DNA from: a virus
Virus record (IMG/VR): IMGVR_UViG_3300037504_000923
Coordinates: 1 to 63,036 of that record
Reading direction: 5' to 3' (one strand)
Length of the DNA stretch: 63,036 nt
Within the stretch, counting starts at the first letter, position 1; every line of letters begins with the position of its first letter. Positions 23,358 to 41,017 of this stretch are shown here, piece by piece. Position numbers and translations under genes: made by a program. A model generated the notes under the pieces. That model saw only the letters and a list, made by a program, of their open reading frames with translations, was not told where the DNA came from and made no database searches.

Positions 23358-23365
23358 AATACCTC

Positions 23366-23728: not shown

Positions 23729-23730
23729 CG

Positions 23731-24105
23731 TTAGTCGTCTTTAAATGATTTAATTGATTTAAAACTTGCTACTTTTCTACCAAGAGAAGCCAACTTACCA
23801 GTAGTATCCAATTCTCTGACTTGTTGACCGTATGGTGTAGCAGCTAATCCTTCTCCAAATTTCCCGGTATATTCAATTGATGCTCCTCCTGCTCCTTCCT
23901 TCTTTGCCATTCTTTCCCTCGAAGTAGCTATCATGTGAGCAGCCAACCACTTTTCAATTGATGTCAACAAAGTGGATCCGAGGCCTTCATTCGTTAATTG
24001 TTGATCCACCAAAGCACTCGCATCATCAATATAGGCTTCAACGATTCCATCCGTTAAATCCGTGTCAATGATCTTTTTTACTGCTGTAGCTGTTGTACGT
24101 GCCAT
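23731..24105 (-). CDS. Head-tail connector (gp6-like)
   Basis: Synteny, small alpha-helical protein. Confidence 0.4.
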   Translation of the reverse strand: MARTTATAVKKIIDTDLTDGIVEAYIDDASALVDQQLTNEGLGSTLLTSIEKWLAAHMIATSRERMAKKEGAGGASIEYTGKFGEGLAATPYGQQVRELDTTGKLASLGRKVASFKSIKSFKDD

Positions 24106-24118
24106 TTATTTTTCCTCC

Positions 24119-24826: not shown

Positions 24827-24827
24827 T

Positions 24828-26149: not shown

Positions 26150-26685
26150 AATGGTTTAACTTTTACGATTAATTCCCTTTCTTCCCATCCTCTTCCTTCT
26201 AATTCCTGAACTTCAAAACGTTTCTTCAATTCATCCATCCACCATTCTCTACTGCGGATTAATACATGAGCATTTCTACCATCCGGGAGGATGTGTTTTC
26301 GAGCCGGTCCAAGACAGATCGTGAAAAATCCACCTTTCCTCATATACTCCCTCAATTCATTCAACACATTTTCAATATACTCAGGTTCTACATGTTCCAA
26401 TACATCCGTACAAACAATGAAATCAAACTTCCCAACTGGTTTATCTGATTTCTCAGGTATAGCGGGATCATATTCTTGTACCCTAAATCCTTTATTTTTC
26501 AAACGAGCAGCCAAAATCCCTTTCCCTGCTCCATAATCCAACACGTACTTGGATCCGGTATCATCTATCAACTTAGATACAAGACCAAGCCATTTTTTAC
26601 CCGAACGACCCCATCCCGATCGACGCCTGTGATGTTCCATATTTAATTCTTTATACTCTTCAGATATTGTCTTTGTCATAACCAA
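26125..26685 (-). CDS. Class I SAM-dependent methyltransferase
   Basis: Motif I VLDYGAGKG, acidic loop VQEYDP, motif post-II/III FDFIVCTDVLEHV. Confidence 0.75.
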   Translation of the reverse strand: MVMTKTISEEYKELNMEHHRRRSGWGRSGKKWLGLVSKLIDDTGSKYVLDYGAGKGILAARLKNKGFRVQEYDPAIPEKSDKPVGKFDFIVCTDVLEHVEPEYIENVLNELREYMRKGGFFTICLGPARKHILPDGRNAHVLIRSREWWMDELKKRFEVQELEGRGWEERELIVKVKPLWGYKKNI

Positions 26686-27239
26686 TTTATTTTAGTTGCT
26701 TTTTCCTCGGCCAACCTTTCAATCAATTCTTTTTCTCCTTGCCAATCATGCGTATTCTGAACTCTCTTCTCATTGAGCCAGCGTTCCATCTCTTTTGGAT
26801 GATGGTTTTTGTTATATTCTCCGTTTTGTATAGCATCAAATCCAGCCAAATTAATACATTCAGGAGTGTATAAATATAGAGCAATAAGAAAAGACGCTGC
26901 TCCTCTGCTCAAATGATGTTCTTTGAGTTTTGGTATATGATAATGTATATAAGGGTTTACAATCCGAGTATGTTTCCCATTCATCTTATAACTTTTTCGA
27001 TGGGATTCTGAAATCATATAATGCCAATATTCTTTTCGTGGTATAGGACAACTGAGCAGGTATTTATGAGAAGGTCCTGAAGTGAAAACAATAATATCAG
27101 ACCTCTTTCCATAATCCTTTTCATTTTGCCACGCACAATCACTCATTCTAATAACACACTCATGCTCATCAATGAATTTTCCAAGCGCTTTCCCTTCAAG
27201 ACTCGGACCATGACCTACTATACATACAGTATCAATCAT
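26676..27239 (-). CDS. Sialyltransferase-like (GT42 / DUF115 Maf-like) transferase
   Basis: VCIVGHGPSLEG...VIRMSDC resembles the Cst-II/Maf N-terminal IIAGNGPSL...VFRCN pattern. Confidence 0.4.
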   Translation of the reverse strand: MIDTVCIVGHGPSLEGKALGKFIDEHECVIRMSDCAWQNEKDYGKRSDIIVFTSGPSHKYLLSCPIPRKEYWHYMISESHRKSYKMNGKHTRIVNPYIHYHIPKLKEHHLSRGAASFLIALYLYTPECINLAGFDAIQNGEYNKNHHPKEMERWLNEKRVQNTHDWQGEKELIERLAEEKATKINWL

Positions 27240-27940
27240 AACACATCCTCCAATTTAACTTTCTTTAATTCAGTGATGGAACTGTCAGGGCTACAATTCA
27301 ATATCTCAATTCCTAACTTCTTTGCATGCCTTGCAATATCAGCAAAGCCTTTTAAATGACCATTAAAAGGTAATTTGATCATGCTCCCTTTCACATTACC
27401 ACTTCCTCCCTTTCTGTATTCACTATGCCAGTGCTGTTTGTTTTCTATTAATTTCATATCAAATCCTAACAAAGTGATTCGTTTCACACCCAAATGATAA
27501 GCCAATGATATTGCAGCCGCTCCGCTATTACCATTCCATGACACTGTTTTTGGATTGGTACTTATACCTTTTGATTTATGATGATCCCGTTCTAAATACT
27601 TAATAGACGGATAATATTCTTTTGAAGCAAATTTATTGTGGCAACTGACTTTAACACCGGGATAATATAATAATGGTGTTTTATGTTGTAAGAAGAATTT
27701 ATGATCTCCAAAAAATACAAAATCCATCCAATCACCAAGTTTATAAGCCGCGTTGACACCAATGACATGTTTGTTATAAATGGGTGAGAAGTATGGAGAG
27801 TAAATGGAAGGAGATTCACTTCCTTCCAAAACTTTCTTTGTTATTGCTTGAGGAATATTGAATACTTTGGTGATAGAACTTCCACCACCAATAATAAAAC
27901 ACTCTCCATCCTTCCATAATTTAGGGACCACCCATTTCAT
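27236..27940 (-). CDS. DUF115/Maf-like or related glycosyltransferase
   Basis: ECFIIGGGSSI, VIGVNAAY and DFVFFGD show the same architecture as the upstream gene. Confidence 0.35.
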   Translation of the reverse strand: MKWVVPKLWKDGECFIIGGGSSITKVFNIPQAITKKVLEGSESPSIYSPYFSPIYNKHVIGVNAAYKLGDWMDFVFFGDHKFFLQHKTPLLYYPGVKVSCHNKFASKEYYPSIKYLERDHHKSKGISTNPKTVSWNGNSGAAAISLAYHLGVKRITLLGFDMKLIENKQHWHSEYRKGGSGNVKGSMIKLPFNGHLKGFADIARHAKKLGIEILNCSPDSSITELKKVKLEDVL

Positions 27941-27943
27941 ACA

Positions 27944-28522
27944 TTATTCCTCTTCTAACATTTCAAGCATTTTATCCTGAAGTACATCGAATTCCATTTC
28001 TTTCAATTTGTCAAATGACTCATCTCCCAAGTCATCCACAAACTCAAAAAATTCTTCATTTTCCTTAATCAGTTCAATGAGGTCATCCATAGACTCTGCG
28101 TCATTTGTCTTTTCAACGAGTCCATGTTTATTCTCATCATCCTGTCCTTTGATAATTGTACTAACAACAACTCCACCAAGGTCGTTAACCATCTTCTCTG
28201 CCTGTTTCTTGGTGATCGCTTTCTCACTGACCTGCTTCTTATTGTTAGCATCCAATATGTTATAATAATTGGATTTGGGAGTCGTTCTCTCAAGGATGTA
28301 CTCCGGTTCACTACCTTTAGGTATCTGCTTTTCAGCAGTCTCACCCGGGACAGTGTCAATAGGAGTGATTTGATCTCTGAATGATTGAGGAATGTCCTCG
28401 GGACGTGAGTAAAACACCTGATTTGGTTTGATTATATTACCACGAGAGTCACGAAAAGTACCTCCTCCATTCTTCTTCCATCTGATTTCACCTTCATTCT
28501 TATCTTTCTGTCTTTTCATCAC
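27944..28522 (-). CDS. Hypothetical acidic protein
   Basis: 192-aa ORF downstream of the capsid gene terminator. Confidence 0.5.
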   Translation of the reverse strand: MMKRQKDKNEGEIRWKKNGGGTFRDSRGNIIKPNQVFYSRPEDIPQSFRDQITPIDTVPGETAEKQIPKGSEPEYILERTTPKSNYYNILDANNKKQVSEKAITKKQAEKMVNDLGGVVVSTIIKGQDDENKHGLVEKTNDAESMDDLIELIKENEEFFEFVDDLGDESFDKLKEMEFDVLQDKMLEMLEEE

Positions 28523-28537
28523 GTTTGATTTAAATTA

Positions 28538-28575
28538 GAAAAAAAGAAAAAAGTGTCACTATGGTTAAGTGACCC
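28538..28575 (-). terminator. Rho-independent terminator downstream of the major capsid gene
   Basis: Minus strand reads GGTCACT-taaccat-AGTGAC followed by ACTTTTTTCTTTTTTT. Confidence 0.55.
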
Positions 28576-28589
28576 CTTTCATCATATAT

Positions 28590-29705
28590 TTACGCCAAAT
28601 GAGCAATACCACATTTGTTGTTCTGATCAGAACGAATCTGAGGAACTTGAATGGTCATGACTTTGTAATCAGTAACCATATTACCCTGTGATTGCCATTC
28701 TACGTTAGTAAGACCCATACCACGTACCAAACGAACCACATCATTTGTCATCTGGACAAGTAACACGTTGTCATCAGGTAAGAAATCCACAACCTTCACA
28801 TCTGTGATGTTATTCAATTGAAGGATTCTTTCTCTGATAGTATTGTTTTTATAGACATTATAGTCTTTGTCCATCAGAGTTTCATAGTTGGTTGGTACAT
28901 ACAGTGTATAAGGTCCATAGTAATGAGCATTCAATAATGATTGCTTCATACTCTGCACATCATCGATAATCTGTTCACCTACTGACTGAGTAGAAGTCGC
29001 AGAAAGATCATCCCAGTTAGTTGACAGAGTTACCTGATTACGGTGTGGGTAATTCAAATAAGAATATATAGTTCCTCCACCGTAAGCTTTAGTAATGTCA
29101 GTGAATAACATCTTTTCCAAGTACTCTCTTACTTTACGGGCAGCCCTTTCTGCCAATGTGGTGTCAATAGGATTACCACTATTTCTACTCGCGTCCAATG
29201 CCCTCATATTGATTGTATAATCAACGTGAATAATAGGCAGAGGTAAGTAGTTGGTTTCATAGTTAGGACGATCATTATTGGCTCTGGAAATACCATCCAT
29301 GGTTAATTCAGCCTCCAGTGCATCACTGACATCATGCCATTCGAGTACTGTAGTTCCCATACCATTACCGAGATCATAAGTCAGTCCTTTACTGATCAGA
29401 TCATCCACTCCACCAAGTCTTTGTTCAACAATTTTCAAAACTACATCATCCAATTGCTTCCATTCGTCACGCCTCAGCGTGGCATTGGTTTGAATTGGAA
29501 CAACTCGATAATTTTTCAAATCATTTGGATCACTACCCGGTCCTCCTACATATACAGATACAACAGGACCAAGGTCTTTGTCGAGATATGGACGCATTAC
29601 ACCGGGATCCATCCGGTTATTCGCAAGAAGCCGTGAGTTAGCAAACTGACCATTCACCGCTCCCCCTTTTCCAATGAAATCCATATTTATATTCATATTA
29701 CTCAT
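28590..29705 (-). CDS. Major capsid protein (HK97 fold, encapsulin-like family)
   Basis: 371 aa. Position follows the decoration/scaffold genes, and RRDEWKQLDDVVLKIVEQRLGGVDDLISKGLTYDLGNGMGTTVLEWHDVSD is typical of this capsid/encapsulin family. Confidence 0.8.
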   Translation of the reverse strand: MSNMNINMDFIGKGGAVNGQFANSRLLANNRMDPGVMRPYLDKDLGPVVSVYVGGPGSDPNDLKNYRVVPIQTNATLRRDEWKQLDDVVLKIVEQRLGGVDDLISKGLTYDLGNGMGTTVLEWHDVSDALEAELTMDGISRANNDRPNYETNYLPLPIIHVDYTINMRALDASRNSGNPIDTTLAERAARKVREYLEKMLFTDITKAYGGGTIYSYLNYPHRNQVTLSTNWDDLSATSTQSVGEQIIDDVQSMKQSLLNAHYYGPYTLYVPTNYETLMDKDYNVYKNNTIRERILQLNNITDVKVVDFLPDDNVLLVQMTNDVVRLVRGMGLTNVEWQSQGNMVTDYKVMTIQVPQIRSDQNNKCGIAHLA

Positions 29706-29719
29706 CTTTTCCTCCTTTC

Positions 29720-30220
29720 TTATACAATTCTTACAATTAATCTTTGATTACCTTGCAGACCACTGGATTCAGCAGCAGAAGATGCTGAAAGATCGAGGTC
29801 TTCAAGTGCTTGGGCAACAATCTGGTTGGTGTAGAATGAATTTACATTCCCTGAAGAATCTGTTCCAATTGATTCTTTATCAGGTACATGTTTCTTCAAA
29901 TAACCATTACCATCGGATTCCAAGAAATCTCCTTTAGAAACATCCTCACCATCTGCCAAAATAGCATATACTTTATCCCCTCGTTGAGGGATCCAGACCT
30001 TCACAGGGTCTCCTGAATCATAATCATCATCAATTCCATTGCCTTGCTCCTCATCCTCGAAAGCAAACATCGGAATCATATTCTGTCCAGCGTTTGAATG
30101 CGCTTGTACCTTACCCGCGCTGGTAAGCTCAATAAGCATACCGGGAGTAATAGCAGCTGCCGCATCATATTCATCAAACACCTTCAGATTATCCAATATT
30201 CTTACACTATGATAAGCCAT
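29720..30220 (-). CDS. DUF2190-like head decoration protein
   Basis: PGMLIELTSAGKVQAH...GDPVKVWIPQRGDKVYAIL...KGDFLESDGNG follows the DUF2190 pattern, immediately upstream of the capsid gene. Confidence 0.55.
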   Translation of the reverse strand: MAYHSVRILDNLKVFDEYDAAAAITPGMLIELTSAGKVQAHSNAGQNMIPMFAFEDEEQGNGIDDDYDSGDPVKVWIPQRGDKVYAILADGEDVSKGDFLESDGNGYLKKHVPDKESIGTDSSGNVNSFYTNQIVAQALEDLDLSASSAAESSGLQGNQRLIVRIV

Positions 30221-30236
30221 TTTTTACCTCCTTCTT

Positions 30237-31958
30237 TTATTTATTTTGTTTTTCTTTGTTTACACCGAGTCCAGTTGGTAGAAGGACTTTCTCTTCCTTA
30301 TTCGCCTGAACTTCTTTTTCAAAATTAGGATTACCAAGTCCGCTGTAATCCATCTGATCATCCTTTGTGACTGACTTTGCAAATTTCTCCAACCTCTCGG
30401 TTGACATCGCATTCAATTCTTCCTCAGTCCATAGGTCTTTCTCAGTGTTGTTTTGAATCTGAGAAATAAGAACCTGTCTCTTTTCCTTATGCAGGCGTAA
30501 TCCATTTTCCATCTGATCCCTGTACTGATCTGGTACAAAGTTTAGGAAATCATCCGGGGACTTCATAGACTCCTTCATGATCTCCTTTATTTGATCAGCA
30601 TTAATCTGAGGATCAGTAGTCTTCTTAGATTCCTGTTTTTTAACAGGTTCCTCAGAGGGCATCAAATCATCGATGATTCTTTCCTCCAATCCTAAGAGAT
30701 ACTCCCGATCCTCTTTTGTGTACTTAGTGCTTTTGTGAGCGATAAGTTTATCAACTTTTTCTTCACAGCACCCTTCCTTTTTGTTATTTGCCATTTTTGA
30801 ATCCTCCTTCTTTTTGTTGTTATGTCTTGTACGCGTCATTCTATTGTTTTGAAGGGGCACGTACTCAACCTTCTGCATTACTTGCTGAGCTTGTCCAACA
30901 AACTCAACCGTTCCGTCCTCTTCGTTTGCTTCGTATTCCTGTTTATAGAAACGATTACCTCCTGTGGCACGTGATCTCATTTCATATATCAGATGATCAT
31001 CATACACCGCCCGTAGGTAATGTATCCGGTCCTCATTATCCCAACCATCCAATTTTGCAGAAAGATCGTGTACTAACTCCTGATAATCTGTTCCTTGGTT
31101 TACTAATACAGGAATAACAAAGTCACCTTTCTTAGAACTATGGTTGACAAAATTCTTTTTCTGTGAACCATCATCTTTCTTTGTGTTTGGCACTTCATTA
31201 CCTCCTTTCTTATTAATACCAATGCCACATCCATCATCCAAAGAACAGGCACCTCTTTCGCCGGGCAAGAGAGCAAGGTGATCTGGTCTGTGATTTCTGG
31301 ACACAGCTATATAGTGTTCCCCATTCCAATCTCCCTCCTGTTGTTCGTCTTCAGTAAATACTCCAATCGAAACATCAAAAGGTTGATTGTTCCTTATGTG
31401 ATTAAGGGCTTGGGGAGAGCGTGCAATAAGTCTTTGTTCATCCAACCACGCCTCTGCTTTGAGTTTTCCGTCTTCCACGCGGGCGTTATATACCGTACCT
31501 ACACTGAATTCCTCTTCCACACCATCCGAAAAAACAGAAACATATTGTCCATTTCTTTCAGGATGTGGTACGGTGACGGGTATCCCTTCCCAACTAGATG
31601 GATCATTTCCGAATTCTTCAGCTTCATGTAAAAGAGGTCCAGCACTGCCTGCGTGAACTCCTTCCACCATCATTACAACCGGCATAACGATGTAATTTTT
31701 CCCATCCAATGTCTCAGTCCTCATCTGATAACCGGATTGGTTGTAATTGACTTGTATCAATGATTGTGGTTCCATATTATTGTTATTTGTTGTTCCTACC
31801 CTTGAATTCGCCGTTCTCATAGCCCGGGCTTCACAACCCGTTTCATTGCTTTGTTGACATTGACGCAGAACACCATTCGCTATACTCACCCATCTGCGTT
31901 TCTGCGCCTGAGTAAGTCCTGATTTGAATCTGTCAACGTCTCCTGTTGTCCACGGCAT
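30237..31958 (-). CDS. DUF2213-like prohead scaffold/protease protein
   Basis: YIVMPVVMMVEGVHAGSAGPLLHEAEEFG...WEGIPVTVPHP is DUF2213-like. It has a long charged C-terminal half and lies between the MuF-like and capsid genes. Confidence 0.5.
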   Translation of the reverse strand: MPWTTGDVDRFKSGLTQAQKRRWVSIANGVLRQCQQSNETGCEARAMRTANSRVGTTNNNNMEPQSLIQVNYNQSGYQMRTETLDGKNYIVMPVVMMVEGVHAGSAGPLLHEAEEFGNDPSSWEGIPVTVPHPERNGQYVSVFSDGVEEEFSVGTVYNARVEDGKLKAEAWLDEQRLIARSPQALNHIRNNQPFDVSIGVFTEDEQQEGDWNGEHYIAVSRNHRPDHLALLPGERGACSLDDGCGIGINKKGGNEVPNTKKDDGSQKKNFVNHSSKKGDFVIPVLVNQGTDYQELVHDLSAKLDGWDNEDRIHYLRAVYDDHLIYEMRSRATGGNRFYKQEYEANEEDGTVEFVGQAQQVMQKVEYVPLQNNRMTRTRHNNKKKEDSKMANNKKEGCCEEKVDKLIAHKSTKYTKEDREYLLGLEERIIDDLMPSEEPVKKQESKKTTDPQINADQIKEIMKESMKSPDDFLNFVPDQYRDQMENGLRLHKEKRQVLISQIQNNTEKDLWTEEELNAMSTERLEKFAKSVTKDDQMDYSGLGNPNFEKEVQANKEEKVLLPTGLGVNKEKQNK

Positions 31959-31972
31959 TTTATTGTTCCTCC

Positions 31973-33028
31973 TTATACATTTTCTAATATTGGTAATTGT
32001 CCTTTTTTCACTGCTTCAAGCTCATTCCACCGACGAGGTTTATCTGTACCCGGTCTAAACGGAAGAGCAATACATCTACATTGAGGATGAAGAGGTATCA
32101 TTCCCTCAATCTTATCCAATGTAAATACCGATCCTTGTAACGATGCACACTGATTACAAACTCTATTATCACCAGCTGTCATCCATTCGGCTTTTACCTT
32201 AACTCCTTCTACTCCCCAATTCCTATATTCTTGTATCGTGGCAAGATGATGAGCCCGTATGATTTCAGTACGTGCCAATATCGTTGCTCTTCTCTCTGCC
32301 GGGATAAATCGTCCTAAAGTATCCGTGATACCAAGCTCTCCAATCCTATTACCACTTATGACTGCATTGAGCTTTCTTGCCAACGTCGATCCTCTGTCTC
32401 CCTCTGCAATACCTTGAGCCAATACCCTACTAATTTGTTGATCCATTGCATCCGTTATCCCCTTCAATTCATTAAACGTCCGGGTGTATAACAGACCAAG
32501 TCTATCGACGTGGAATGGAGTGTTCATTGAGGCTGATATACCACCACTTTGTTCGATAGAGGGAACTTCAAACCCTGCTTTTCCTAACTCATACCGCGCC
32601 CGGATCACTCCCCTTTTATAGGCGTCTCTGACATATAGATTTGTCCAAGCTCCTTCTCCTGCTTGTCCTATTTGATTGAATTCTACAATCTCCAGTAACT
32701 CTCTATCCACCTGTCTTCTCAACCACGTCATAAACCCCTGTACTTTGTCAGCAGAACGAGGAAAATCAAAAGCCCTCGGTCCCGGAGTGGTCACAGCAAG
32801 TGTCTGTGGGTTGGAAGTCAATCCAAACACATCCTCCTCTACAATTGCCTTCCTTATTGCTCCTCGTATATTCTGAAACCGCTTCCTTACTTTCCGGGCG
32901 AATTCATTACGTAAGGTTGTGGTGCGAGTAGGATCATACCCCTCAGCCTGATAAGTAGTGATCCCACCACCACAACCGCAGTCATGAGAGTGAGTGTGAA
33001 TAGGCTTTATGTTACTGATTGTCTCCAT
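31973..33028 (-). CDS. Head morphogenesis protein (SPP1 gp7 / Mu F family)
   Basis: RTEIIRAHHLATIQEY...MTAGDNRVCNQCASLQGSVF...PLHPQCRC is the family signature. Confidence 0.85.
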   Translation of the reverse strand: METISNIKPIHTHSHDCGCGGGITTYQAEGYDPTRTTTLRNEFARKVRKRFQNIRGAIRKAIVEEDVFGLTSNPQTLAVTTPGPRAFDFPRSADKVQGFMTWLRRQVDRELLEIVEFNQIGQAGEGAWTNLYVRDAYKRGVIRARYELGKAGFEVPSIEQSGGISASMNTPFHVDRLGLLYTRTFNELKGITDAMDQQISRVLAQGIAEGDRGSTLARKLNAVISGNRIGELGITDTLGRFIPAERRATILARTEIIRAHHLATIQEYRNWGVEGVKVKAEWMTAGDNRVCNQCASLQGSVFTLDKIEGMIPLHPQCRCIALPFRPGTDKPRRWNELEAVKKGQLPILENV

Positions 33029-33266
33029 TTAAATAGTATGTGCGTTTATTTTGTTGTTTCTTACTACTTAGTTTCTCACTTAATAAAAATCGCTTGAAAA
33101 ACCTGATCAATGGATGTATTTGTTCTTTCTCTGCATACTCCCATGTCTCTATCGTTATTGGCTCTCCAACCTCCATTGTTATTTGTACCTTCGCTACTCT
33201 GTTTGGATTAATACCAAGTATCTCCAAAAGTTCCCTACCTGTATCACTATTTGATAATATTGCCAT
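33012..33266 (-). CDS. Hypothetical protein
   Basis: 84-aa ORF between the portal and MuF-like genes. Confidence 0.45.
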   Translation of the reverse strand: MAILSNSDTGRELLEILGINPNRVAKVQITMEVGEPITIETWEYAEKEQIHPLIRFFKRFLLSEKLSSKKQQNKRTYYLNGDNQ

Positions 33267-33268
33267 CT

Positions 33269-34699
33269 TTATTCCTCCTCCATATTTTGATTACTACCAT
33301 CATCCATATCATCATCCGCTCCTCTCATCTCCTCTTCTTCCTCCGTTATCATCGAACCTCTCAATTCATTAACATACTCAATCTGTTCATCCGTGAACTT
33401 CAATACATACTTCATAAATGCCTCAGTCGGGAAAATCATTTCAAGACCCGGAGCCGTACCATACGACTTCAATGCACTGGAGAGGTTACTAGCAATCTCA
33501 GCCTGTTCCTTCTCACCTGTCTTGAATAAGGACATCCATTCCACGGAGTATTCTCCTTCTTGTTTCGGAGGTCTGAGAATACCCATCTGAATGAACCTTT
33601 CCACAACGGGACGAATGATTTGTGGTTCTGCAAACTCTTCCCTCCTTGTCTGTATTTCTTCAAACCAGTTGTTCCTATCCTGAGAAGATGCCAATTCACC
33701 ACGTTCACTACCAAGTAAGATACGAAGCGGGATGCCTCTCTCCGCTGCTATCATTTGTAGTTGTACTTCCACGTGTGATTTGGGGTCACTGACTTGTGGT
33801 TTCAATTCTTTCAATTCCAATCCTTCCAACGTTATGAATCGACGGAGGTTGTGTTCGTATTCATCAAGTTGTTGACGTAATTGATCCTCCGTCTGTGTGG
33901 TGGATTGATATCCTTCTTTCAGTTCATTGGAGTAACCCGGCCTTGCTCCTCTCCAAAACATTTCGGCACTGCCTCCTACTAACTTCTCCAAATCCTTCAA
34001 CCTGTTAAATACTGCTTGTAAGGCCGGGACTCCTTCAACCTCTGATTCCAACAATTCACCTGTTATATGTATTATTCTGCTATGATGTACTCTTAATATG
34101 GTAGATGTTTTTTGACCGGGGTTATATATCGTGACGTTATAATATACAGGCAGTCCGAAACGTGGATTATTAGACCGGGATTCCCATGACTGAATCTCTG
34201 CATGTTTCTCACCAAGCGGTTTAATGTAATTTAATTTTACTGAGGTTTGCACGGGCTTCATATAATCATCCCGGTTCTTAACGTCAGAAAGACCGAGTAA
34301 TAATACTCCATACTTACCAAGTTGGGTAAGTTTATCAACTCTAATGAATTTGGATTTCAATCGATGTTTCCTATCTAGTTCCTTCCAATCTGCTTCCAAT
34401 AGAGTTTCATTCTCATCATTTGATTCCAATAACGTGATATCTCCTCTCCATGTTGCTTTCACCGGTCTGTTTATGATAGCCTTTGCTATCGCCTGTCTTA
34501 GATACTGAGTAGCATAATCCTCATACTCCAATTCCGTTTTATATCCCAGTGCTTCATATAAATTTCTATCCGTGCCGTATGAACGACCGAGAAGAGATGC
34601 TAACCTCGCTCTGCCTACCAGTTCATGCATTGCCTGTAATTTTTGTCGCAATGCCTGTACCGTTTCCGTTTGTTGTGTATGATGTTTAGTTCTTTTCAT
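33269..34699 (-). CDS. Portal protein (DUF1073-like)
   Basis: About 476 aa, immediately downstream of terL with an acidic C-terminus. The start is taken at Met21 of the listed ORF, one nt after the terL stop. Confidence 0.75.
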   Translation of the reverse strand: MKRTKHHTQQTETVQALRQKLQAMHELVGRARLASLLGRSYGTDRNLYEALGYKTELEYEDYATQYLRQAIAKAIINRPVKATWRGDITLLESNDENETLLEADWKELDRKHRLKSKFIRVDKLTQLGKYGVLLLGLSDVKNRDDYMKPVQTSVKLNYIKPLGEKHAEIQSWESRSNNPRFGLPVYYNVTIYNPGQKTSTILRVHHSRIIHITGELLESEVEGVPALQAVFNRLKDLEKLVGGSAEMFWRGARPGYSNELKEGYQSTTQTEDQLRQQLDEYEHNLRRFITLEGLELKELKPQVSDPKSHVEVQLQMIAAERGIPLRILLGSERGELASSQDRNNWFEEIQTRREEFAEPQIIRPVVERFIQMGILRPPKQEGEYSVEWMSLFKTGEKEQAEIASNLSSALKSYGTAPGLEMIFPTEAFMKYVLKFTDEQIEYVNELRGSMITEEEEEMRGADDDMDDGSNQNMEEE

Positions 34700-34700
34700 A

Positions 34701-36236
34701 TTATATAACCCTCGCCGTTTTCTTTGATGTAAGCATAGCAAACGCTCCTGAAGCAGCATCCACTTGGTCTTTAGTCATCCCCCGTGGGAAGTTTCTTAGT
34801 TCATTGATGAAAGCAGTGTTCCAGTCCGCTCTCATTATATACACATTTCCTTTATTAACTTGCACTGAAAATTTATCCGCTCTGAATACCTTGTCTCCAA
34901 CTGGACGATCAGTGGTGACGTGAAATCCTGCGAGGTTTTTAACCGTCCCCTCTGCTGATTCCTTCCCACCTGATCCCGGTTCCTGTTCTACTCCTACAAA
35001 TGTATTTTCCGTGTCTGCAAATGCCGTCTCTCTGATAACGTCTTCTCTTTCATCCGACCCCCATTGTCCTCTCTTTACGTCCTCTATTATATAAATGCCT
35101 GTTTTTAATTTGTGCATCTTTATCCCTGCCGTACGTGCTCCTTTTCCTTTTGCTTTCTCCTTCGATGTGCCCGCTTTATCCCAATACCTAACAGTATGTT
35201 CTATATTGACAGAAGCAGGCATTTGATTAATAACTTGCAGATGATCAACTTTAAACATTCCTCCTTCGGGTGGGATGGCATTCTGTCCGACTTGATTTGC
35301 ATATCCATACGTACCGAGGTCATCTAACATCTCATCCAATACTTTCAGGTTCAATCTGACCGGATCTAATAACCCATCCTTATAATATTTCAACAATTCT
35401 TTTGGTTTAACCAGTTCCCTGTATCCCTCGGTAAGTATCTCACCCGGTAAACAAATATGACGTATATTCTTTTTCTTTTTGGATAGTAAATGCCCGGTTG
35501 GATCATCTTCATGTAAACGCTGCATGATTCCAATCGTGACCGTTATCTCCTTATCTGTTTTCCTTGTTGATAGAGTATGATCAACCCATTTGTTTGCATT
35601 CTCCAATTCCGTTTCGGAGGCAGCTTGTTTTGGATTTAATGGATCATCCCACAATATGATATGTGCATGAAAGCCTGTTCCTTTTCCTTTTACCGATGTA
35701 GATATTCTGCCACCACCTGTTCTGACCCTCGGTAATTGCCCGGTATAAACCTGTTCCTTCTTAACGATTCTAAAATTGGACTTCACATCCTTATCCTGTT
35801 TGATGTCTATCTCCGGGAAGAGTTGTTGGAACTTTTCCGATCTTATTAAGTCTCTACTATACTCTGCTGACTCCAATGACAGATCCCCTCCGTAACTACC
35901 TGTTATGAACCTCATCCAATACCAGTTAACCCAGCACCAGACGGGGAAGAAGATCATCACGGTAGAAGTTTTCGAGGTACCGGGAGGGACGTTTATGATC
36001 AGATCGTTTTCTTTAGGTTTTTTCTTTGCTACTCTCTGAGCAATCTTTTCAAGTTCATTACATATATATTCAATATGCCAATTATCTTTGTACTCATCCT
36101 CCGAGTACTCGGACCAAAAGTATTTGATAAACTCATGTAGTGATTCCTTTACACGCATACGTTTATATGCCACTGGATTTTCCAATACCATATTAATAAG
36201 TTTTTTGCGTTGTTTTTCAATTACTTTTTCCATCAC
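34701..36236 (-). CDS. terL: Terminase large subunit
   Basis: Walker A-like VPPGTSKTS, Walker B HIILWDDP, and a C-terminal RNase H-like nuclease region (VGVEQEPGSGGKE, DQVDA). Confidence 0.9.
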   Translation of the reverse strand: MMEKVIEKQRKKLINMVLENPVAYKRMRVKESLHEFIKYFWSEYSEDEYKDNWHIEYICNELEKIAQRVAKKKPKENDLIINVPPGTSKTSTVMIFFPVWCWVNWYWMRFITGSYGGDLSLESAEYSRDLIRSEKFQQLFPEIDIKQDKDVKSNFRIVKKEQVYTGQLPRVRTGGGRISTSVKGKGTGFHAHIILWDDPLNPKQAASETELENANKWVDHTLSTRKTDKEITVTIGIMQRLHEDDPTGHLLSKKKKNIRHICLPGEILTEGYRELVKPKELLKYYKDGLLDPVRLNLKVLDEMLDDLGTYGYANQVGQNAIPPEGGMFKVDHLQVINQMPASVNIEHTVRYWDKAGTSKEKAKGKGARTAGIKMHKLKTGIYIIEDVKRGQWGSDEREDVIRETAFADTENTFVGVEQEPGSGGKESAEGTVKNLAGFHVTTDRPVGDKVFRADKFSVQVNKGNVYIMRADWNTAFINELRNFPRGMTKDQVDAASGAFAMLTSKKTARVI

Positions 36237-36849
36237 CCAGCATAAGTTGTTTATTCGTTATACTATCCAACCACTTTTTATCCTCCTCTGACAGGACATG
36301 GTCAGGTAATTCCTCAATCTTTTTAAATTGGTGTTCTATTGCCCCGGAGTGTTCGTGTTTGTATTTTGTCACATCCGCCCATACGTCTTTGAAGTTTATG
36401 CTCAGCCATTTATACGCTGCATTGGCGTCCTTTGGGAAGTATTTCATGTAGGGTTCCTTTTCAAGTTGATCGTATTCAATCTCCCTGATTACATTTCCCT
36501 CGGTGTCAAATTCAGTTTCCTTTACTTTCTTCTTATAAAAGTATAAGGCAGGTACGTAATATCCATTGGCTTTTTCGAATAATGAGTTTCCTACTTTGTT
36601 GATTGCTTCGATTTTTCCAAGATCACGTGCACGTCGAAATTCTCTATAATTTTTCAGCCAATAATCTACGGTAGATTTTCCTACATCAAAATAAACGGCG
36701 AGTTCTTGTATCCTTGCTCCTGCTCTCGTTAATGAACGTACGTCTTCGAGTTGTTGCTCGGTGAATTCACGTTTAGGACCGCGTTTATTCCGCCCACTTT
36801 TCCTGTTTTTTATTTTTCCGTTATACCGTGTACGTTTCATTTCGACCAA
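36217..36849 (-). CDS. terS: Terminase small subunit
   Basis: HTH RIQELAVYFDVGKSTVDYWLKNY, directly upstream of and overlapping terL. Confidence 0.65.
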   Translation of the reverse strand: MVEMKRTRYNGKIKNRKSGRNKRGPKREFTEQQLEDVRSLTRAGARIQELAVYFDVGKSTVDYWLKNYREFRRARDLGKIEAINKVGNSLFEKANGYYVPALYFYKKKVKETEFDTEGNVIREIEYDQLEKEPYMKYFPKDANAAYKWLSINFKDVWADVTKYKHEHSGAIEHQFKKIEELPDHVLSEEDKKWLDSITNKQLMLGDGKSN

Positions 36850-36949
36850 AAATTTTTGTAAATATAAGAAGGAAAAAAGGACAGAACTAAATAAATTTGT
36901 TTAAAATCATTCTAAATAAGGAAATTTTTTAAAAAAAGTTTAAAAAAAG

Positions 36950-36980
36950 TTTGTTTGTTTAAAAATTTGCCGTATCTTTA
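36950..36980 (+). promoter_or_regulatory. Bacteroidota-type early promoter candidate (TTTG-N19-TATCTTTA)
   Basis: TTTG at 36950-36953, a 19-nt spacer, then TATCTTTA at 36973-36980. This compares with the TTTG/TAnnTTTG consensus. It lies in the divergent intergenic region. Confidence 0.45.
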
Positions 36981-36989
36981 TATTAACAA

Positions 36990-37219
36990 ATTAAAACAAA
37001 CGGATCTTTGAAATTTTGAGCCTTGAGAATCTGAAAGCCGCGGTCACAACGTGTTAGGGAGTAGGATAAGGAGGCAAACAAGAGAGCATGACAGTCTTAG
37101 AAAAACGGAGTTCCCTGATGGCTCATAAGAGCCCCGGATGAGTTGATTTGTTGCGGTGTTGTAAATGGAAGGGTAAAACATCATAATGACCGTTGAATAA
37201 ATAAGAGTCAGTTTTCAAA
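36990..37219 (+). ncRNA. Candidate structured 5' leader RNA released by HH-1 cleavage
   Basis: About 230 nt with no long ORF, visibly more G+C-rich than its flanks. Hand-found complementarities: 37040-37046/37187-37193, 37051-37060/37112-37120, and hairpin 37120-37133. Confidence 0.3.
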
Positions 37220-37278
37220 GACAAACTGAAGAGACTTTAATAGTCGAAACGCTATCACTTGTTGATAGCGTCTTTGTC
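37220..37278 (+). ncRNA. Hammerhead ribozyme HH-1 (type I)
   Basis: GACAAA|CUGAAGA|GACU-uuaau-AGUC|GAAA|CGCUAUCA-cuugu-UGAUAGCG|UC^|UUUGUC. Predicted cleavage after C37272. Confidence 0.85.
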
Positions 37279-37298
37279 AAACCAAAAATTTATTTATT

Positions 37299-37613
37299 AT
37301 GGAAACTACAGATTATTTAAAACTTAGAAAAATTGGGTATTCAAAAGAATATTTAAATCAAATGAATAACCCAGAATTTACTCATGTTCGATTTACTTTT
37401 GAAGAGCTTGTATTTCTTGAATCATTAGTTGGGAAAAAAATAAAAACATCAACTGGTAATCACACAATTGTAAATATTGATCCTTCAATCGTTGGATGTG
37501 CTATGTATTATAATCATCCAAATGGCTTGAAAGGAGTCATTCATATTGAAAAACAAAATGGTATATTGGTTGCTGGTCGTTCAAAAACCCCACTAAAAAA
37601 TATAATATTTTAA
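37299..37613 (+). CDS. Hypothetical early protein
   Basis: ORF starting 26 nt after the HH-1 cleavage site. Starts METTD, as does the next gene. Confidence 0.6.
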   Translation: METTDYLKLRKIGYSKEYLNQMNNPEFTHVRFTFEELVFLESLVGKKIKTSTGNHTIVNIDPSIVGCAMYYNHPNGLKGVIHIEKQNGILVAGRSKTPLKNIIF

Positions 37614-37620
37614 CCAATAA

Positions 37621-37677
37621 GACTAACTGATGAGACCTAAATGGTCGAAACCGGGATTTTATTTCCCGGTCTTAGTC
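37621..37677 (+). ncRNA. Hammerhead ribozyme HH-2 (type I)
   Basis: GACUAA|CUGAUGA|GACC-uaaau-GGUC|GAAA|CCGGGA-uuuuauu-UCCCGG|UC^|UUAGUC. Predicted cleavage after C37671. Confidence 0.85.
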
Positions 37678-37697
37678 AAACCAAAAATTTATTTATT

Positions 37698-38564
37698 ATG
37701 GAAACTACAGACTTAAAAGTAACGGAAAAAGAACTAAAGGTTCTGAATGGAATTATCTTCAATGACTATGTTGATTTTGATACTGATAACCCTGTGCATC
37801 CAAATGATTATGAAGAATTACAAACTTGGATGTGGGCTGCTCAGGAGTCAAGTGGATTATCTGGTAAATCATTCTCAGGCGTTTGTTCATCATTGGAAAA
37901 AAAGAAAATGATTGTAACAGATACTGAAGGTAGTAAAACCACAGAAGGGATGGAAATCAGAGATACTTGGGGTATTACTCTTTTGAAAAAAGGATATGAA
38001 GCTTGGTTAAATGAACTGAGGAAAAAAGACAAGTTATTTGAAGAGCCAAAAAAATCAAACTCTGAAAAACTTACTCTTAATCAAATTAAGAAGATGAGTG
38101 AAGAAAATTTTAATGATCTTTTGGAAAAGACAGTTTTGACAAAAGGTGATTATTATTTGGATAAACTCGAAAATGGACAATACTTAGTTTCTCACGCTGA
38201 AACTCCTAAAATTCTTTGTGATGATTATGAGGAAGGGTGTCATTATTTCTCCGTCGAGTCAAATAAAAATGATGCCAAACAAAAAGGAAAGGAATCAAAA
38301 ATGACAACTACAACAAAAGCAAAAAAGAAATCAGAAAAAACTCCAAAGGAAAAAGGAGTTATTGCTACAATCGTTGCTTTAATTGAAAATGCAAATAAAG
38401 CTGGAATTTCAAAAGAACAAATTCTGAATATTCTTGTAAAAACATTTCCTGATAGAAATAAAAATTCTATGAAAAATACTATTAATGTGCAGGTACCTAA
38501 TAGAATTTCAAAAGAACGATTTAAAGTAAAAAAACTTGAAAATGGAAATTATAAAAAAGCCTAA
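37698..38564 (+). CDS. Hypothetical early protein; C-terminal domain paralogous to that of 50828..51700
   Basis: Start taken at the ATG at 37698, because the listed ORF start at 37641 lies inside HH-2. C-terminus: KGVIATIVALIENANKAGISKEQILNILVKTFPDRNKNSMKNTINVQVPNRISKERFKVKKLENGNYKKA. Confidence 0.65.
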   Translation: METTDLKVTEKELKVLNGIIFNDYVDFDTDNPVHPNDYEELQTWMWAAQESSGLSGKSFSGVCSSLEKKKMIVTDTEGSKTTEGMEIRDTWGITLLKKGYEAWLNELRKKDKLFEEPKKSNSEKLTLNQIKKMSEENFNDLLEKTVLTKGDYYLDKLENGQYLVSHAETPKILCDDYEEGCHYFSVESNKNDAKQKGKESKMTTTTKAKKKSEKTPKEKGVIATIVALIENANKAGISKEQILNILVKTFPDRNKNSMKNTINVQVPNRISKERFKVKKLENGNYKKA

Positions 38565-38626
38565 GGCATACTGATGAGGATTTAATATCCGAAACATTCT
38601 CCTTTTTTAGGGAGAATGTATATGTC
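38565..38626 (+). ncRNA. Hammerhead ribozyme HH-3 (type I)
   Basis: GGCAUA|CUGAUGA|GGAU-uuaau-AUCC|GAAA|CAUUCUCC-uuuuuuag-GGAGAAUG|UA^|UAUGUC. Predicted cleavage after A38620. It begins directly after the stop codon at 38562-38564. Confidence 0.85.
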
Positions 38627-38647
38627 AAATCAAAAAATTTATTAGTT

Positions 38648-38887
38648 ATGAAAAAATTAAGAAAAAATCAAATTTTAGAAGTTAGAGGTGACAGAGGAGC
38701 AAATAAATACCAAGTACAAATCATTCAAAGAATGATTAAATTAGAAAAGTATTATGAAACCCTAACTGGAGAAAAAGAATGTATCTATTTAGCCAAAGAT
38801 ATAAAAGATGGTAAAAAAGTATATATTACCAATTCTCCCGGTTATTGGGAAATTGATCCTCTTATCAATGAAGAACAGGAGGTGTGA
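38648..38887 (+). CDS. Hypothetical early protein
   Basis: ORF starting 27 nt after the HH-3 cleavage site. Confidence 0.55.
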   Translation: MKKLRKNQILEVRGDRGANKYQVQIIQRMIKLEKYYETLTGEKECIYLAKDIKDGKKVYITNSPGYWEIDPLINEEQEV

Positions 38888-39105
38888 TCATGTTAAACAC
38901 TAAAGAACGCAGAGAAATCGCAAAAATTGCCACTCAATTAATGAGTAAAGGCGTCAAATTACAAAGCAAAAAACTCGTCATTCGTGCATTTGACATGATT
39001 GATGAAGATGATGAATTCAACTGGGATTATTTGGATAGTGAATTTTCCCAGTGGGATGAAATAAGTGAAAAAGGAATTGATATCATTTATTCAAATATTC
39101 ATTAA
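38884..39105 (+). CDS. Hypothetical early protein
   Basis: Coupled ORF, 73 aa, acidic. Confidence 0.5.
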   Translation: MIMLNTKERREIAKIATQLMSKGVKLQSKKLVIRAFDMIDEDDEFNWDYLDSEFSQWDEISEKGIDIIYSNIH

Positions 39106-39106
39106 T

Positions 39107-39268
39107 ATGGCTGTTAAAAAATTCAAACATCGTACAGGAACTGTCATTGTTACTAAGTATAATGACGAGATCAAGATCCACAAACCGAAAAAGATGACCG
39201 AGGAAGAACTCAAACAATTTAAAAGGGTTCATGCTCAGGAAATTGAGAACATAGGGAAGACATACTGA
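39107..39268 (+). CDS. Hypothetical small early protein
   Basis: ATG at 39107, one nt after the upstream stop. Its UGA stop (39266-39268) lies inside the CUGAUGA core of HH-4. Confidence 0.45.
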   Translation: MAVKKFKHRTGTVIVTKYNDEIKIHKPKKMTEEELKQFKRVHAQEIENIGKTY

Positions 39269-39370
39269 TGAGGATTTAATATCCGAAACCGGAGGGATGG
39301 GAACAGGAATGAAAAGCCTAATAGATTGTGCAAAGCAAAGCTCCCCTGCCATCCTATACCGGTCTATGTC
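39259..39370 (+). ncRNA. Hammerhead ribozyme HH-4 (type I, extended stem III)
   Basis: GACAUA|CUGAUGA|GGAU-uuaau-AUCC|GAAA|CCGG-[66-nt insert 39293-39358]-CCGG|UC^|UAUGUC. Predicted cleavage after C39364. Confidence 0.8.
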
Positions 39371-39393
39371 AAACATTCTAAACTATAACAATT

Positions 39394-39747
39394 ATGGCGG
39401 AAGAAACCAAACAAAGACAAGAAAAAACCCCAAAAGACATTGAGTTTGATCATCTATGTAAAAAACTACTCGAATTAACAAAAGACGAGGAATTTTCATT
39501 GATGATCATACAAACAAATGTCATACCGGGTGACAAAGAAAAAAATGAAGAAGATGGATTGAATGTTCGTTATTTTCATGAAGGAGATGTCAAACTGACC
39601 GGATATGCACTGAAGGACTATTCTAACAGAGATGCAAGGATTAAGGCAATTGTGAATGCTGTGCATCTTTCAAACACCACCAACATCCCAATGGCTATGC
39701 TTTTGGAAGCTAAGATAAAAGGGAATGAAAGTGAAGGTAAAGAATAA
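39394..39747 (+). CDS. Hypothetical early protein
   Basis: ORF starting 29 nt after the HH-4 cleavage site. Confidence 0.55.
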   Translation: MAEETKQRQEKTPKDIEFDHLCKKLLELTKDEEFSLMIIQTNVIPGDKEKNEEDGLNVRYFHEGDVKLTGYALKDYSNRDARIKAIVNAVHLSNTTNIPMAMLLEAKIKGNESEGKE

Positions 39748-39756
39748 TATTGTAAA

Positions 39757-39788
39757 GCCTGTTTCTATCAAAGGAAGCAGGCTTTTTT
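39757..39788 (+). terminator. Rho-independent terminator ending the ribozyme-containing early operon
   Basis: GCCUGUUUC-uaucaaag-GAAGCAGGC followed by UUUUUU. Confidence 0.7.
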
Positions 39789-39814
39789 AAGTTAAATCAA
39801 AAATAAGAGATATT

Positions 39815-40339
39815 ATGAAAACACATGTATTAAAATTAAGGAAACTAAGAGCTTGTGAAGAAGCTGTAGAATTTGCAGAACAATTCAATTCAATTGAAGA
39901 AACATTAGAAAATACAGAACGTGGAGATTGGATTTTATGGCTTGCTCAAAGAGTTGGAGTTAATAAACGTAAATTAACACTTGCAAAGGCTCTTTGTGCT
40001 GAAACAGTTATACATCTGATGACAGATGAAAGGAGTAAAAAAGCTGTTAAAATAGCTAAAAAATATGGCAAAAGTGAAGCGACTGAAGAAGAATTAAGTA
40101 CTGCTGCTTATGCTGCTGATGCTGCTTATGCTGCTGCTGATGCTGCTGCTTATGCTGCTTATGCTGCTTATGCTGCTGATGCTGCTGCTGATGCTGCTGC
40201 TTATGCTGCTTATGCTGCTTATGCTGCTGATGCTGCTGCTGATGCTGCTTATGCTGAAAAAGATAACCAGAAAAAGACAGCAAAAATAAGTAAAGAAATA
40301 CTATTTGAAGAAATTGTTGAAAAATTTAATGAACTATGA
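39815..40339 (+). CDS. Hypothetical protein with (AAY/AAD)n low-complexity repeat
   Basis: N-terminal LRKLRACEEAVEFAEQF...GDWILWLAQRVG, then AAYAADAAYAAADAAAYAAYAAYAADAAADAAAYAAYAAYAADAAADAAYA. Confidence 0.6.
   Translation: MKTHVLKLRKLRACEEAVEFAEQFNSIEETLENTERGDWILWLAQRVGVNKRKLTLAKALCAETVIHLMTDERSKKAVKIAKKYGKSEATEEELSTAAYAADAAYAAADAAAYAAYAAYAADAAADAAAYAAYAAYAADAAADAAYAEKDNQKKTAKISKEILFEEIVEKFNEL
40103..40256 (+). repeat. GCT-rich trinucleotide-based tandem repeat (48-nt unit, about 2 copies plus partial copies)
   Basis: gctgct(tat/gat) periodicity, with the block gctgcttatgctgcttatgctgcttatgctgctgatgctgctgctgat repeated. Confidence 0.85.
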
Positions 40340-40611
40340 ATAAATCAATTATTGATGAAATAAAAGAGAATGATCCCTTAAAGACTGAAATTATTAGTAA
40401 AAGTCAAATAATGGAGAATCATGAAAAGCTCTATGTTATTCAGAAAGGAGCTTTGTTTGAAGTAAGAACTGTTTCAAATAGACAAACCGTAGAGACGGAA
40501 GGTTATTGGTCTATGTCTCATATCAACTATCAATTCATTACATCATTTCAAATAAGGGATTATGATGAGTTGAATTTAATTGTGGACATGCTTGTAATAC
40601 AGGGGAGGTAA
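40336..40611 (+). CDS. Hypothetical protein
   Basis: Coupled ORF, 91 aa. Confidence 0.5.
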   Translation: MNKSIIDEIKENDPLKTEIISKSQIMENHEKLYVIQKGALFEVRTVSNRQTVETEGYWSMSHINYQFITSFQIRDYDELNLIVDMLVIQGR

Positions 40612-40612
40612 A

Positions 40613-41017
40613 ATGAATTATGTAATACTTGCAACCGCTTTTCCAAACTCAATGTATGTTTTTCTTAATTCTTTAAGGGATATGAAAATTGAAGTGTGTA
40701 TGAAAAGGGAGAGGATTATATACTTTGAAGTTTGGGATGATGGTTATAGAAAAAGAATAACAGAGGAGACAGTTAAAAATCTGTTTCCTTTAGATCGTCA
40801 AATCAAAAAAAGACCGTTTTTGTCAAAGGATAACAAAACATTTTATACTGTTTTGATGAGGCATAAACGGAAATACAAAAAAGAATTTGAAAATATTGTC
40901 AAACAAAAATTAGAAAATCATGAGTCAAACAAAAATTTACAAAATAAGCCGAGGATTCGCCGAACGAAAAGACATACCAAGACTTTTCGTCGCACGCGAA
41001 GTAGTAGAAACAAATAA
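40613..41017 (+). CDS. Hypothetical basic protein
   Basis: 134-aa ORF. Its 3' end overlaps the SNF2 gene start by about 98 nt, so the real stop or the downstream start is uncertain. Confidence 0.4.
   Translation: MNYVILATAFPNSMYVFLNSLRDMKIEVCMKRERIIYFEVWDDGYRKRITEETVKNLFPLDRQIKKRPFLSKDNKTFYTVLMRHKRKYKKEFENIVKQKLENHESNKNLQNKPRIRRTKRHTKTFRRTRSSRNK

Follow-up and report, generated by a model that had tools for sequence, protein, structure and literature searches.

Clustered type I hammerhead ribozymes in a phage operon and the layout of stop codon, ribozyme and start codon across their family

The 63,036-nucleotide (nt) stretch analyzed here (IMG/VR record IMGVR_UViG_3300037504_000923, referred to as the window) is a segment of a tailed-phage genome that carries on its + strand, between 37220 and 39370, four elements with the full consensus of the hammerhead ribozyme, each followed after a short leader by the start codon of a gene. 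Clusters of type I hammerheads in phage operons are already known, and the four elements are typical examples. Comparison with related sequences in other phage contigs indicates that their placement between the stop codon of one gene and the start codon of the next characterizes a widespread family of phage hammerheads and is not peculiar to this phage. Spacing and stop position hold across this large family, and we therefore regard the layout as a selected architecture and not as an accident. The best-supported reading, which we consider probable, is that co-transcriptional self-cleavage divides the operon transcript into separate mRNAs. Coordinates are positions of the window, and the labels HH1-HH4 for the ribozymes and A-G for the genes are used throughout.

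Four hammerheads and their leaders in the window

A type I hammerhead was defined by the residues C3 U4 G5 A6 N7 G8 A9, followed by G12 A13 A14, the A15.1-U16.1 pair and a non-G residue at position 17. All four window sites carry CUGA(A/U)GA, GAAA and a U with C or A before the cut, and all run in the order 6-bp stem I, CUGA(A/U)GA, 4-bp stem II, GAAA, stem III hairpin, U plus C or A, and stem I 3' strand. Stem II is closed by UUAAU or UAAAU, stem III comprises 4-10 uninterrupted bp, and in every element stem I is open and stems II and III are loop-closed, which is the type I topology. The three-way junction is the minimum-energy fold of all four elements, the lowest-scoring fold z, that of HH4 (-1.5), being due to an extension of ~75 nt in its stem III. 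A search of the 63-kb window with R1, a covariance model built from relatives of the window hammerheads, found HH1-HH4 and no other site, the low score of HH4 (31.9 bits) reflecting an insertion that disturbs the alignment. Regular-expression matches at 41968, 48562 and 59874 were rejected as further window hammerheads, as they fail the stem tests and are not found by R1. The elements, with their cores (CTGAnGA in the DNA), predicted cuts and leaders, are as follows.

37220-37278, + strand: HH1, type I hammerhead; R1 66.8 bits, E 3.5e-13; fold z -2.96; predicted cut 3' of C37272
37220-37225 paired with 37273-37278, + strand: HH1 stem I
37226-37232, + strand: HH1 core CUGAAGA
37233-37245, + strand: HH1 stem II and its loop
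37246-37249 and 37250-37270, + strand: HH1 GAAA and stem III, respectively
37273-37298, + strand: gene A leader, 26 nt, consisting of UUUGUC (stem I 3' strand), AAA and then CCAAAAAUUUAUUUAUU
37276-37312, + strand: 37-nt block, exact copy of 37675-37711, from -23 to +14 around the gene A ATG
37621-37677, + strand: HH2, type I hammerhead; core 37627-37633; R1 65.9 bits; fold z -3.81; predicted cut 3' of C37671
37672-37697, + strand: gene B leader, 26 nt
38565-38626, + strand: HH3, type I hammerhead; stem I 5' strand 38565-38570; core 38571-38577; R1 60.1 bits; fold z -4.0; predicted cut 3' of A38620
38621-38647, + strand: gene C leader, 27 nt
39259-39370, + strand: HH4, type I hammerhead with ~75-nt extended stem III; core 39265-39271; predicted cut 3' of C39364
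39365-39393, + strand: gene F leader, 29 nt; only UAUGUCAAAC in common with the other leaders
39791-39814, + strand: leader-like motif GUUAAAUCAAAAA before gene G, starting 24 nt before the ATG at 39815; no hammerhead upstream

A first-pass annotation of the sequence had placed the cuts 26, 26, 27 and 29 nt before the ATGs at 37299, 37698, 38648 and 39394, and had noted a 37-nt duplication at the first two; both sets of coordinates were confirmed. The duplicated block extends from the G of GUC through codon 5 of proteins A and B, which are not homologous to each other, and upstream of it HH1 and HH2 have diverged, with compensatory changes. Its sharp edges suggest that the identity probably stems from a recent recombination or conversion event. 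The stop codons of the upstream genes likewise lie where they had been described, with the TAA at 38562-38564 immediately adjoining HH3 stem I and the gene E stop formed by the UGA at 39266-39268 of the HH4 core CUGAUGA. The gene A stop (TAA, 37611-37613) ends 7 nt before HH2 stem I, and HH1, which has no upstream open reading frame (ORF), sits in the 5' untranslated region of the operon.

The resemblance claimed among the leaders is borne out for HH1-HH3, whose 20 nt before the ATG show pairwise identities of 1.0 and 0.8, and fails at HH4, where identity is only 0.55; the background among 2016 pairs of non-hammerhead window genes has a mean of 0.37 and a 99th percentile of 0.65. The first ~8 nt of what had been called leader, moreover, are best counted as ribozyme (see below). 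The motif GTCAAAYCAAAAA (GUCAAAYCAAAAA), with at most one mismatch, occurs in five copies, all on the + strand and within 37276-40809, against a whole-window expectation of 1.05, and five copies were reached in 0 of 100 shuffles. One copy, GTTAAATCAAAAA, stands before gene G in the same register as in the hammerhead leaders and is preceded by a terminator-like hairpin, not a ribozyme; since gene G carries the motif without a ribozyme, the leader appears to be a translation-initiation module in its own right.

Such a recurrent motif could also be a common operator, in which GUCAAAYCAAAAA, 10-11 nt and the AUG form the site of one phage or host factor controlling the gene set, and the ribozymes merely deliver a free 5' end. 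Phage T4 RegA provides a model for control of this type. The excess of copies and their confinement to the 3.5-kb operon agree with it, as do the constant register before four start codons, including that of the ribozyme-free gene G, and the span of the HH1/HH2 identity, -23 to +14, which is about the size of a ribosome or repressor footprint. Against it, the HH4 leader lacks the motif, no candidate RNA-binding protein was identified, and the motif is conserved in no other contig, making control by a shared operator decidedly unlikely. A search for the leader pattern in IMG/VR gave just two chance matches, both in coding sequence, and one in JGI metagenomes gave no match.

Within the window, an exact GTCAAATCAAAAA copy at 40797-40809 and a near-copy TGTCAAACAAAAATT at 40896-40912 both lie inside the ORF 40613-41017, just 5' of the first ATG (40920) of an ORF encoding an SNF2 helicase, in a stretch without a detectable hammerhead. 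The two copies could be relics or could have arisen by chance in Lys-rich coding sequence. The first-pass annotation had further described a distal complementarity in HH1 bordering the start codon. The 9 nt of AAUAAAUAA and UUAUUUAUU are indeed complementary, the latter at 37290-37298 (not 37289-37297), and this was equalled in 24 of 1000 shuffles (p ~0.024 before correction for four tests). The helix is absent at HH2-HH4, even though the HH2 leader equals that of HH1, and it was rejected as a conserved feature.

A layout shared by a phage hammerhead family

The pattern CTGANGAGRMYTWAATRKYCGAAAC, comprising core, stem II and GAAAC, matched more than 119 IMG/VR contigs, and all family figures given here refer to type I hammerheads detected among the contigs listed for it, using a detector that requires three stems and the U-H dinucleotide. 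At least 191 type I hammerheads were detected in these contigs, at least 176 of them non-redundant and spread over 106 contigs, with a maximum of 12 per contig among those listed. Among 185,579 species-representative genomes, the same pattern was found in only 12 stretches, from several phyla. Many phages have almost the same ~30 nt of stem I, core and stem II, and loop II never varies at its U and central A residues. In 57 family sequences, compensatory changes on both sides were observed for 11 of 14 scored pairs, and the covariation score was 0.77 vs 0.03-0.08 for slid partners.

In the family (at least 176 members, 106 contigs), the next ORF of at least 40 codons has its ATG a median of 26 nt downstream of the cut, the mode being 19-27 nt. 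This distance falls between 17 and 30 nt in 59% of the family vs 6.7% of random positions on the same contigs and strands. A long upstream ORF is present for 144 members and absent for 32 of 176 (18%); where it is present, 96% of the stops fall inside the ribozyme or no more than 10 nt ahead of it, distributed as follows.

Upstream stop 0-10 nt before stem I: 41% of 144
Upstream stop within the stem I 5' strand: 27% of 144
Upstream stop in CUGANGA: 15% of 144
Upstream stop in stem II or loop II: 12% of 144
Upstream stop more than 10 nt upstream: 3% of 144
Upstream ORF reading past the cleavage site: 2 ORFs of 144

The window leaders of 26-29 nt and the window stops at +7, 0 and -10 are typical of this family. 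Of the conservation in other phages that had been anticipated, the spacing is kept across the ribozyme family, and the leader sequence is kept only within genomes.

The proximity of stop codon and ribozyme, found at HH2-HH4 and in 96% of the family members with an upstream ORF (within about 10 nt of the ribozyme or inside it), had been taken to suggest coupling, in which the ribosome that ends the upstream ORF on stem I and core controls cleavage and downstream expression depends on upstream translation. The footprint of a terminating ribosome reaches roughly 12-15 nt beyond the stop on the 3' side and would melt the stem I 5' strand at HH2, HH3 and HH4. The register of the stop is, however, spread over about 20 nt in several classes (-10, -6, -4, -1, 0 and +1 to +9), HH1 and the 32 family members without an upstream ORF keep the same downstream geometry, and the pattern is expected as well, with no regulation involved, from genome compaction and the requirement that the 5' fragment keep a stop. 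Coupling is possible, yet nothing specific speaks for it, and we consider it unlikely.

The layout recurs in a cultured phage and, twelve times over, on a single contig. Methylophilales phage MEP301 (MW452941.1; L158 700-756) has an unannotated family hammerhead between gp02 and gp03, with the annotated gp02 coding sequence ending at a TAA in ribozyme loop II and the gp03 start 32 nt past the predicted cut. On contig L087 (IMGVR_UViG_3300030382_001968), twelve type I hammerheads occupy 6.3 kb (2290-8610). Nearly all share stem I GTAATA/TATTAC, and each is followed by TATTACAA-AGGAGG-spacer-ATG, the AA, AGGAGG and ATG coming within 19-26 nt; in some, stem III is enlarged by an insertion of about 100-130 nt.

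When the family is aligned at the cut, a G-C pair closes the 6-bp stem I in 89% of members, an A lies directly 5' of stem I (-7) in 98%, and an A occupies +7 in 95% and +8 in 75%. The first ~8 leader nt (U-W-W-GUC-AA) thus appear to be ribozyme, namely the stem I 3' strand plus A+7 and A+8. Contacts between stem I and loop II have a known geometry in natural hammerheads, and by analogy we infer that the unpaired As flanking stem I belong to a tertiary contact of the ribozyme; their conservation of 95-98% and the invariant loop II U and A would be compatible with a contact between stem I and loop II. Read from these alignments, the leader is composed of three parts: the stem I 3' strand (6 nt), the family-conserved As and a genome-specific ribosome-binding region. 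About half of the family leaders contain a GGAG-type Shine-Dalgarno-like motif, the other half are A/U-rich without one, and an A is found at -3 relative to the start in 83%.

Leaders resemble each other more within a contig than between contigs (identity 0.66 vs 0.51, p 7e-9) and differ less in length (3.2 nt within a genome vs 7.1 nt between genomes), which we attribute to use of the same translation-initiation module and to sequence exchange between copies. The excess of within-genome identity is greatest in stem I, at 0.50; stem III shows an excess of 0.30, the first 10 leader nt in a gap-free comparison 0.14 and stem II 0.09, and loop II shows no excess. Sharing of stem I within a genome may reflect slow divergence, both of its strands also serving the end of the upstream ORF or the start of the mRNA, or it may reflect sequence exchange between copies.

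With stem I common to a genome, fragments could in principle pair end to end and be circularized or re-joined by the reverse hammerhead reaction or by RtcB. The status of stem I as the most genome-specific part of the element (0.50 vs 0.09 for stem II) fits this proposal, as does the finding that in 43% of adjacent pairs, vs 9% of random pairs, the stem I 3' strand of the first hammerhead can pair fully with the 5' strand of the second; in the window, the HH3-to-HH4 junction pairs at 6/6 positions. On the same contig, adjacent and non-adjacent pairs do not differ in stem I compatibility, so that adjacency gives no advantage, and the other two window junctions pair at just 5/6 and 4/6. Perreault et al. 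sought spliced and circular products and found none (PMC3088659). End-joining is, in our estimate, highly improbable.

On five family contigs (L021, L043, L040, L132 and L074), the leader repeats the stem I 5' strand a few nt further downstream, e.g., TTAGAC-AATCAA-GTCTAA. A 5'-terminal hairpin on the cleaved mRNA is possible in 18 of 136 family leaders vs 9.1 expected. The window leaders contain no complement of the stem I 3' strand and have no 5' hairpin of the insulator type.

Probable division of the operon transcript into separate mRNAs

Under the favored reading, each ribozyme would fold during transcription and cut just 3' of itself, yielding five RNA pieces: the 5' untranslated part, A, B, C-D-E and F, with HH1 removing the 5' untranslated part of the operon transcript. 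In the type I topology, with stem I open, nearly the entire ribozyme would stay 5' of the cut. The upstream fragment would retain its stop codon, so that no mRNAs lacking a stop arise, and its 3' terminus would be a compact fold bearing a 2',3'-cyclic phosphate. The downstream fragment would begin with a 5'-OH and consist of the six stem I nt, one or two tertiary-contact As, the ribosome-binding region and the AUG, the ~26-nt leader being what remains once a compact genome packs the ribozyme between stop and ribosome-binding site. Poor cleavage of 5'-OH ends by the 5'-end-dependent RNases of bacterial mRNA decay is well known, and structured 3' ends slow exonucleases. We infer that cleavage takes place in vivo and affects expression and stability, the likely effect being that translation and stability of each cistron are freed from the upstream neighbor.

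This proposal has precedents. Clustered prophage hammerheads flank genes and cleave both in vitro and in vivo, and processing of polycistronic RNA was proposed for them (PMC3088659). With the synthetic insulator RiboJ, transcripts become about 2-fold more abundant and protein increases 2- to 10-fold (PMC6206723). A 2019 review called the purpose of bacterial and phage hammerheads unresolved (PMC6765202). The position of the cut is that of an insulator, just 5' of the ribosome-binding site with a short defined leader (26-29 nt in the window; family median 26 nt).

Several observations weigh against this reading or limit what it can claim. Predicted accessibility of the ribosome-binding site rises merely from 0.63 to 0.69 upon cleavage, and on this small gain the idea that the site is masked until cleavage was rejected; insulation and stability, and not unmasking of the site, would therefore be the likely gains. 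The covariation of stems I and III is inflated, as the detector itself demanded that those stems pair. No Rfam model matched at its gathering threshold in the window or in six family arrays, and the identity of the elements therefore rests on the core consensus, covariation and our own model R1. The best Rfam match was RF03152 (the RAGATH-1 hammerhead), with 33.4 bits for HH1 and 30.8 bits for HH2 against a gathering score of 56.3, followed by the HH9 model with at best 18.6 bits against 52. In E-value mode only these two sub-threshold models stood out, other matches (snoRNA and sRNA models) being at chance level. We read the missing gathering-level match as a gap in model coverage, since the core residues, the three helices and the compensatory changes expected of a type I hammerhead are all present.

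Also to be set against the favored reading, distant relatives with the terS-terL/SNF2 layout showed no hammerhead in the retrieved DNA, and the genes C-D-E follow one another without ribozymes, from which it follows that the elements are dispensable add-ons. A link of the ribozyme to gene B was rejected, as 17 viral loci encoding homologues of the gene B domain all lack a hammerhead. Taken together, the absences from relatives and from gene B loci indicate that the ribozymes are tied neither to the phage lineage nor to the flanked genes.

The same absences, along with flanked genes of no known family, suit an explanation in which ribozyme and leader are mainly a module boundary, a shared recombination site for swapping or duplicating small accessory genes that each arrive with their expression signals. 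The sharp-edged 37-nt perfect tract, which joins two diverged ribozymes to two unrelated genes, points the same way, as does the near identity of ~30 nt of stem I, core and stem II in many phages. A boundary function leaves unexplained the conservation of the catalytic core and the compensatory changes in the stems, which point to selection on cleavage, and no recombinant genome pair was found in the collections searched, which held no close relative. As an alternative it is a tentative possibility, and it can be compatible with division of the transcript by self-cleavage.

Finally, the near-constancy of stem I and leader within a genome, next to stems II and III that drift, might be read as a deliberate system, in which every processed mRNA of one genome starts with the same 5'-OH tag and upstream fragments end in the matching ribozyme. 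The tag would be read by a single factor, or by the ribosome for 5'-end-dependent initiation without a Shine-Dalgarno sequence, or the fragments would be re-joined or circularized (reverse hammerhead, RtcB), with upstream translation into the ribozyme setting the balance of cut and uncut RNA. We regard such a system as very unlikely.

Genomic context and comparison with known systems

The hammerhead operon lies on the + strand, divergent from the minus-strand genes terS (36217-36849) and terL, and comprises the following features.

36850-37219, + strand: divergent intergenic region and 5' untranslated part of the operon
37299-37613, + strand: gene A, 104 aa, no known family
37698-38564, + strand: gene B, 288 aa
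38648-38887, + strand: gene C
38890-39105, + strand: gene D, with GGAGG before it
39107-39268, + strand: gene E
39394-39747, + strand: gene F, 117 aa, no known family
39754-39785, + strand: terminator-like hairpin after gene F, operon end

Genes C-D-E are tightly packed with no ribozyme between them and hence form one processing unit. No Pfam or PHROG family was matched by genes A-F; the C-terminal ~70 aa of gene B constitute a domain widespread in phages, with a TINVQVPxR motif. The ORF 39815-40339, which starts at the gene G ATG, encodes a long Ala/Tyr/Asp repeat (AAYAADAAYAAADAAAYAAYAAY) and matches only PHROG families of unknown function (phrog_18326 and phrog_38757).

Ahead of HH1, no + strand ORF of at least 30 aa occurs between 36905 and 37298. 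A promoter scan of 36850-37219 gave matches no more frequent than in shuffles and did not locate a promoter. The stretch 37000-37200 is G+C-richer than the otherwise A/T-rich region and untranslated, and shows no significant sign of structured RNA (fold z -0.9). An AAGGAGG at 37068-37074 is followed, 14 nt on, by the start (37089) of a possible 17-codon ORF.

The window terL is closest (38%) to those of phages of the Flavobacteriia genera Cellulophaga, Riemerella and Croceibacter. A Shine-Dalgarno-like motif precedes only 24 of 84 crudely called window genes, mostly structural genes. Ribosome-binding sites of the strong AAGGAGGT type are concentrated among the structural genes of the minus strand (about 22000-33300), and most plus-strand genes of the window have A/U-rich upstream regions without a AAGGAGGT-type motif. 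A blastn search of GenBank phages found no close relative, terL relatives in IMG/VR are only 52-60% identical and none of them has a hammerhead, and a search of metagenomes with the SNF2 protein gave a single match, at 31%. The sole identical DNA is a Logan contig of 2476 nt.

In RiboJ, a derivative of the sTRSV hammerhead, the downstream RNA retains most of the ribozyme together with a designed hairpin. The window elements share with RiboJ-type insulators a hammerhead located just 5' of the ribosome-binding site that strips off upstream RNA and yields a defined 5'-OH leader, expression being known to rise with RiboJ (PMC6206723). They differ in their type I topology, which leaves 6-8 nt of ribozyme downstream, and in leaders without a 5' hairpin. 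The window ribozymes would be, as a functional analogy only, the natural counterpart of the synthetic RiboJ insulator.

The nearest natural parallel is the prophage clusters of Perreault et al. 2011 (PMC3088659), which likewise have several hammerheads per transcription unit among small variable phage genes, and for which processing of long phage transcripts into mRNAs of one or a few genes was proposed. That paper gives no quantitative layout (stop position, ~19-27 nt leader, within-genome sharing of stem I and leader), and the hammerheads tested in it were partly type II or III, in contrast to the four of the window, which are all type I. HHphage of haloviruses HF1/HF2 (PMC3088659) also precedes a start codon by a short, fixed 13 nt, where an early operon begins, and a mapped transcript 5' end lies within 3 nt of its cleavage site; unlike the window elements, it is a single copy with a variant core in an archaeal virus, for which salt sensing was proposed. 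Type I hammerheads upstream of an ORF are also known from the 5' untranslated regions of fungal and plant RNA viruses, where cleavage was reported to be necessary for translation initiation (bioRxiv 10.1101/2024.05.16.594327), but these concern eukaryotic cap-independent translation in RNA genomes and form no operon arrays. HH1 and HH2 resemble RAGATH-1 (RF03152) in CUGAUGAGACUU...CGAAAC, in the shortness of stem I and in the A-rich sequence that precedes it. HH3 and HH4 are unmatched by that model, and its extra 5' hairpin is not conserved in the window's family, in which no conserved hairpin signal occurs in the 14 nt before the core; given also the sub-gathering scores, membership in RAGATH-1 was rejected.

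Taken alone, the window adds just four more hammerhead examples. What is new is a quantitative and testable layout rule for a large phage family missed by Rfam thresholds: the upstream stop lies at or inside the ribozyme, the ribozyme stays upstream, the downstream RNA starts about 19-27 nt before the AUG, and the leader matches the host's type of ribosome-binding site. The rule offers a rationale for the type I topology, which holds the stop codon upstream and passes on a clean leader. It also flags unannotated ribozymes and overlapping gene ends in deposited phage genomes, e.g., that of Methylophilales phage MEP301, and the within-genome sharing of stem I constitutes a new lead. For the biology of the family, the layout supports the view that these ribozymes are natural cistron insulators.

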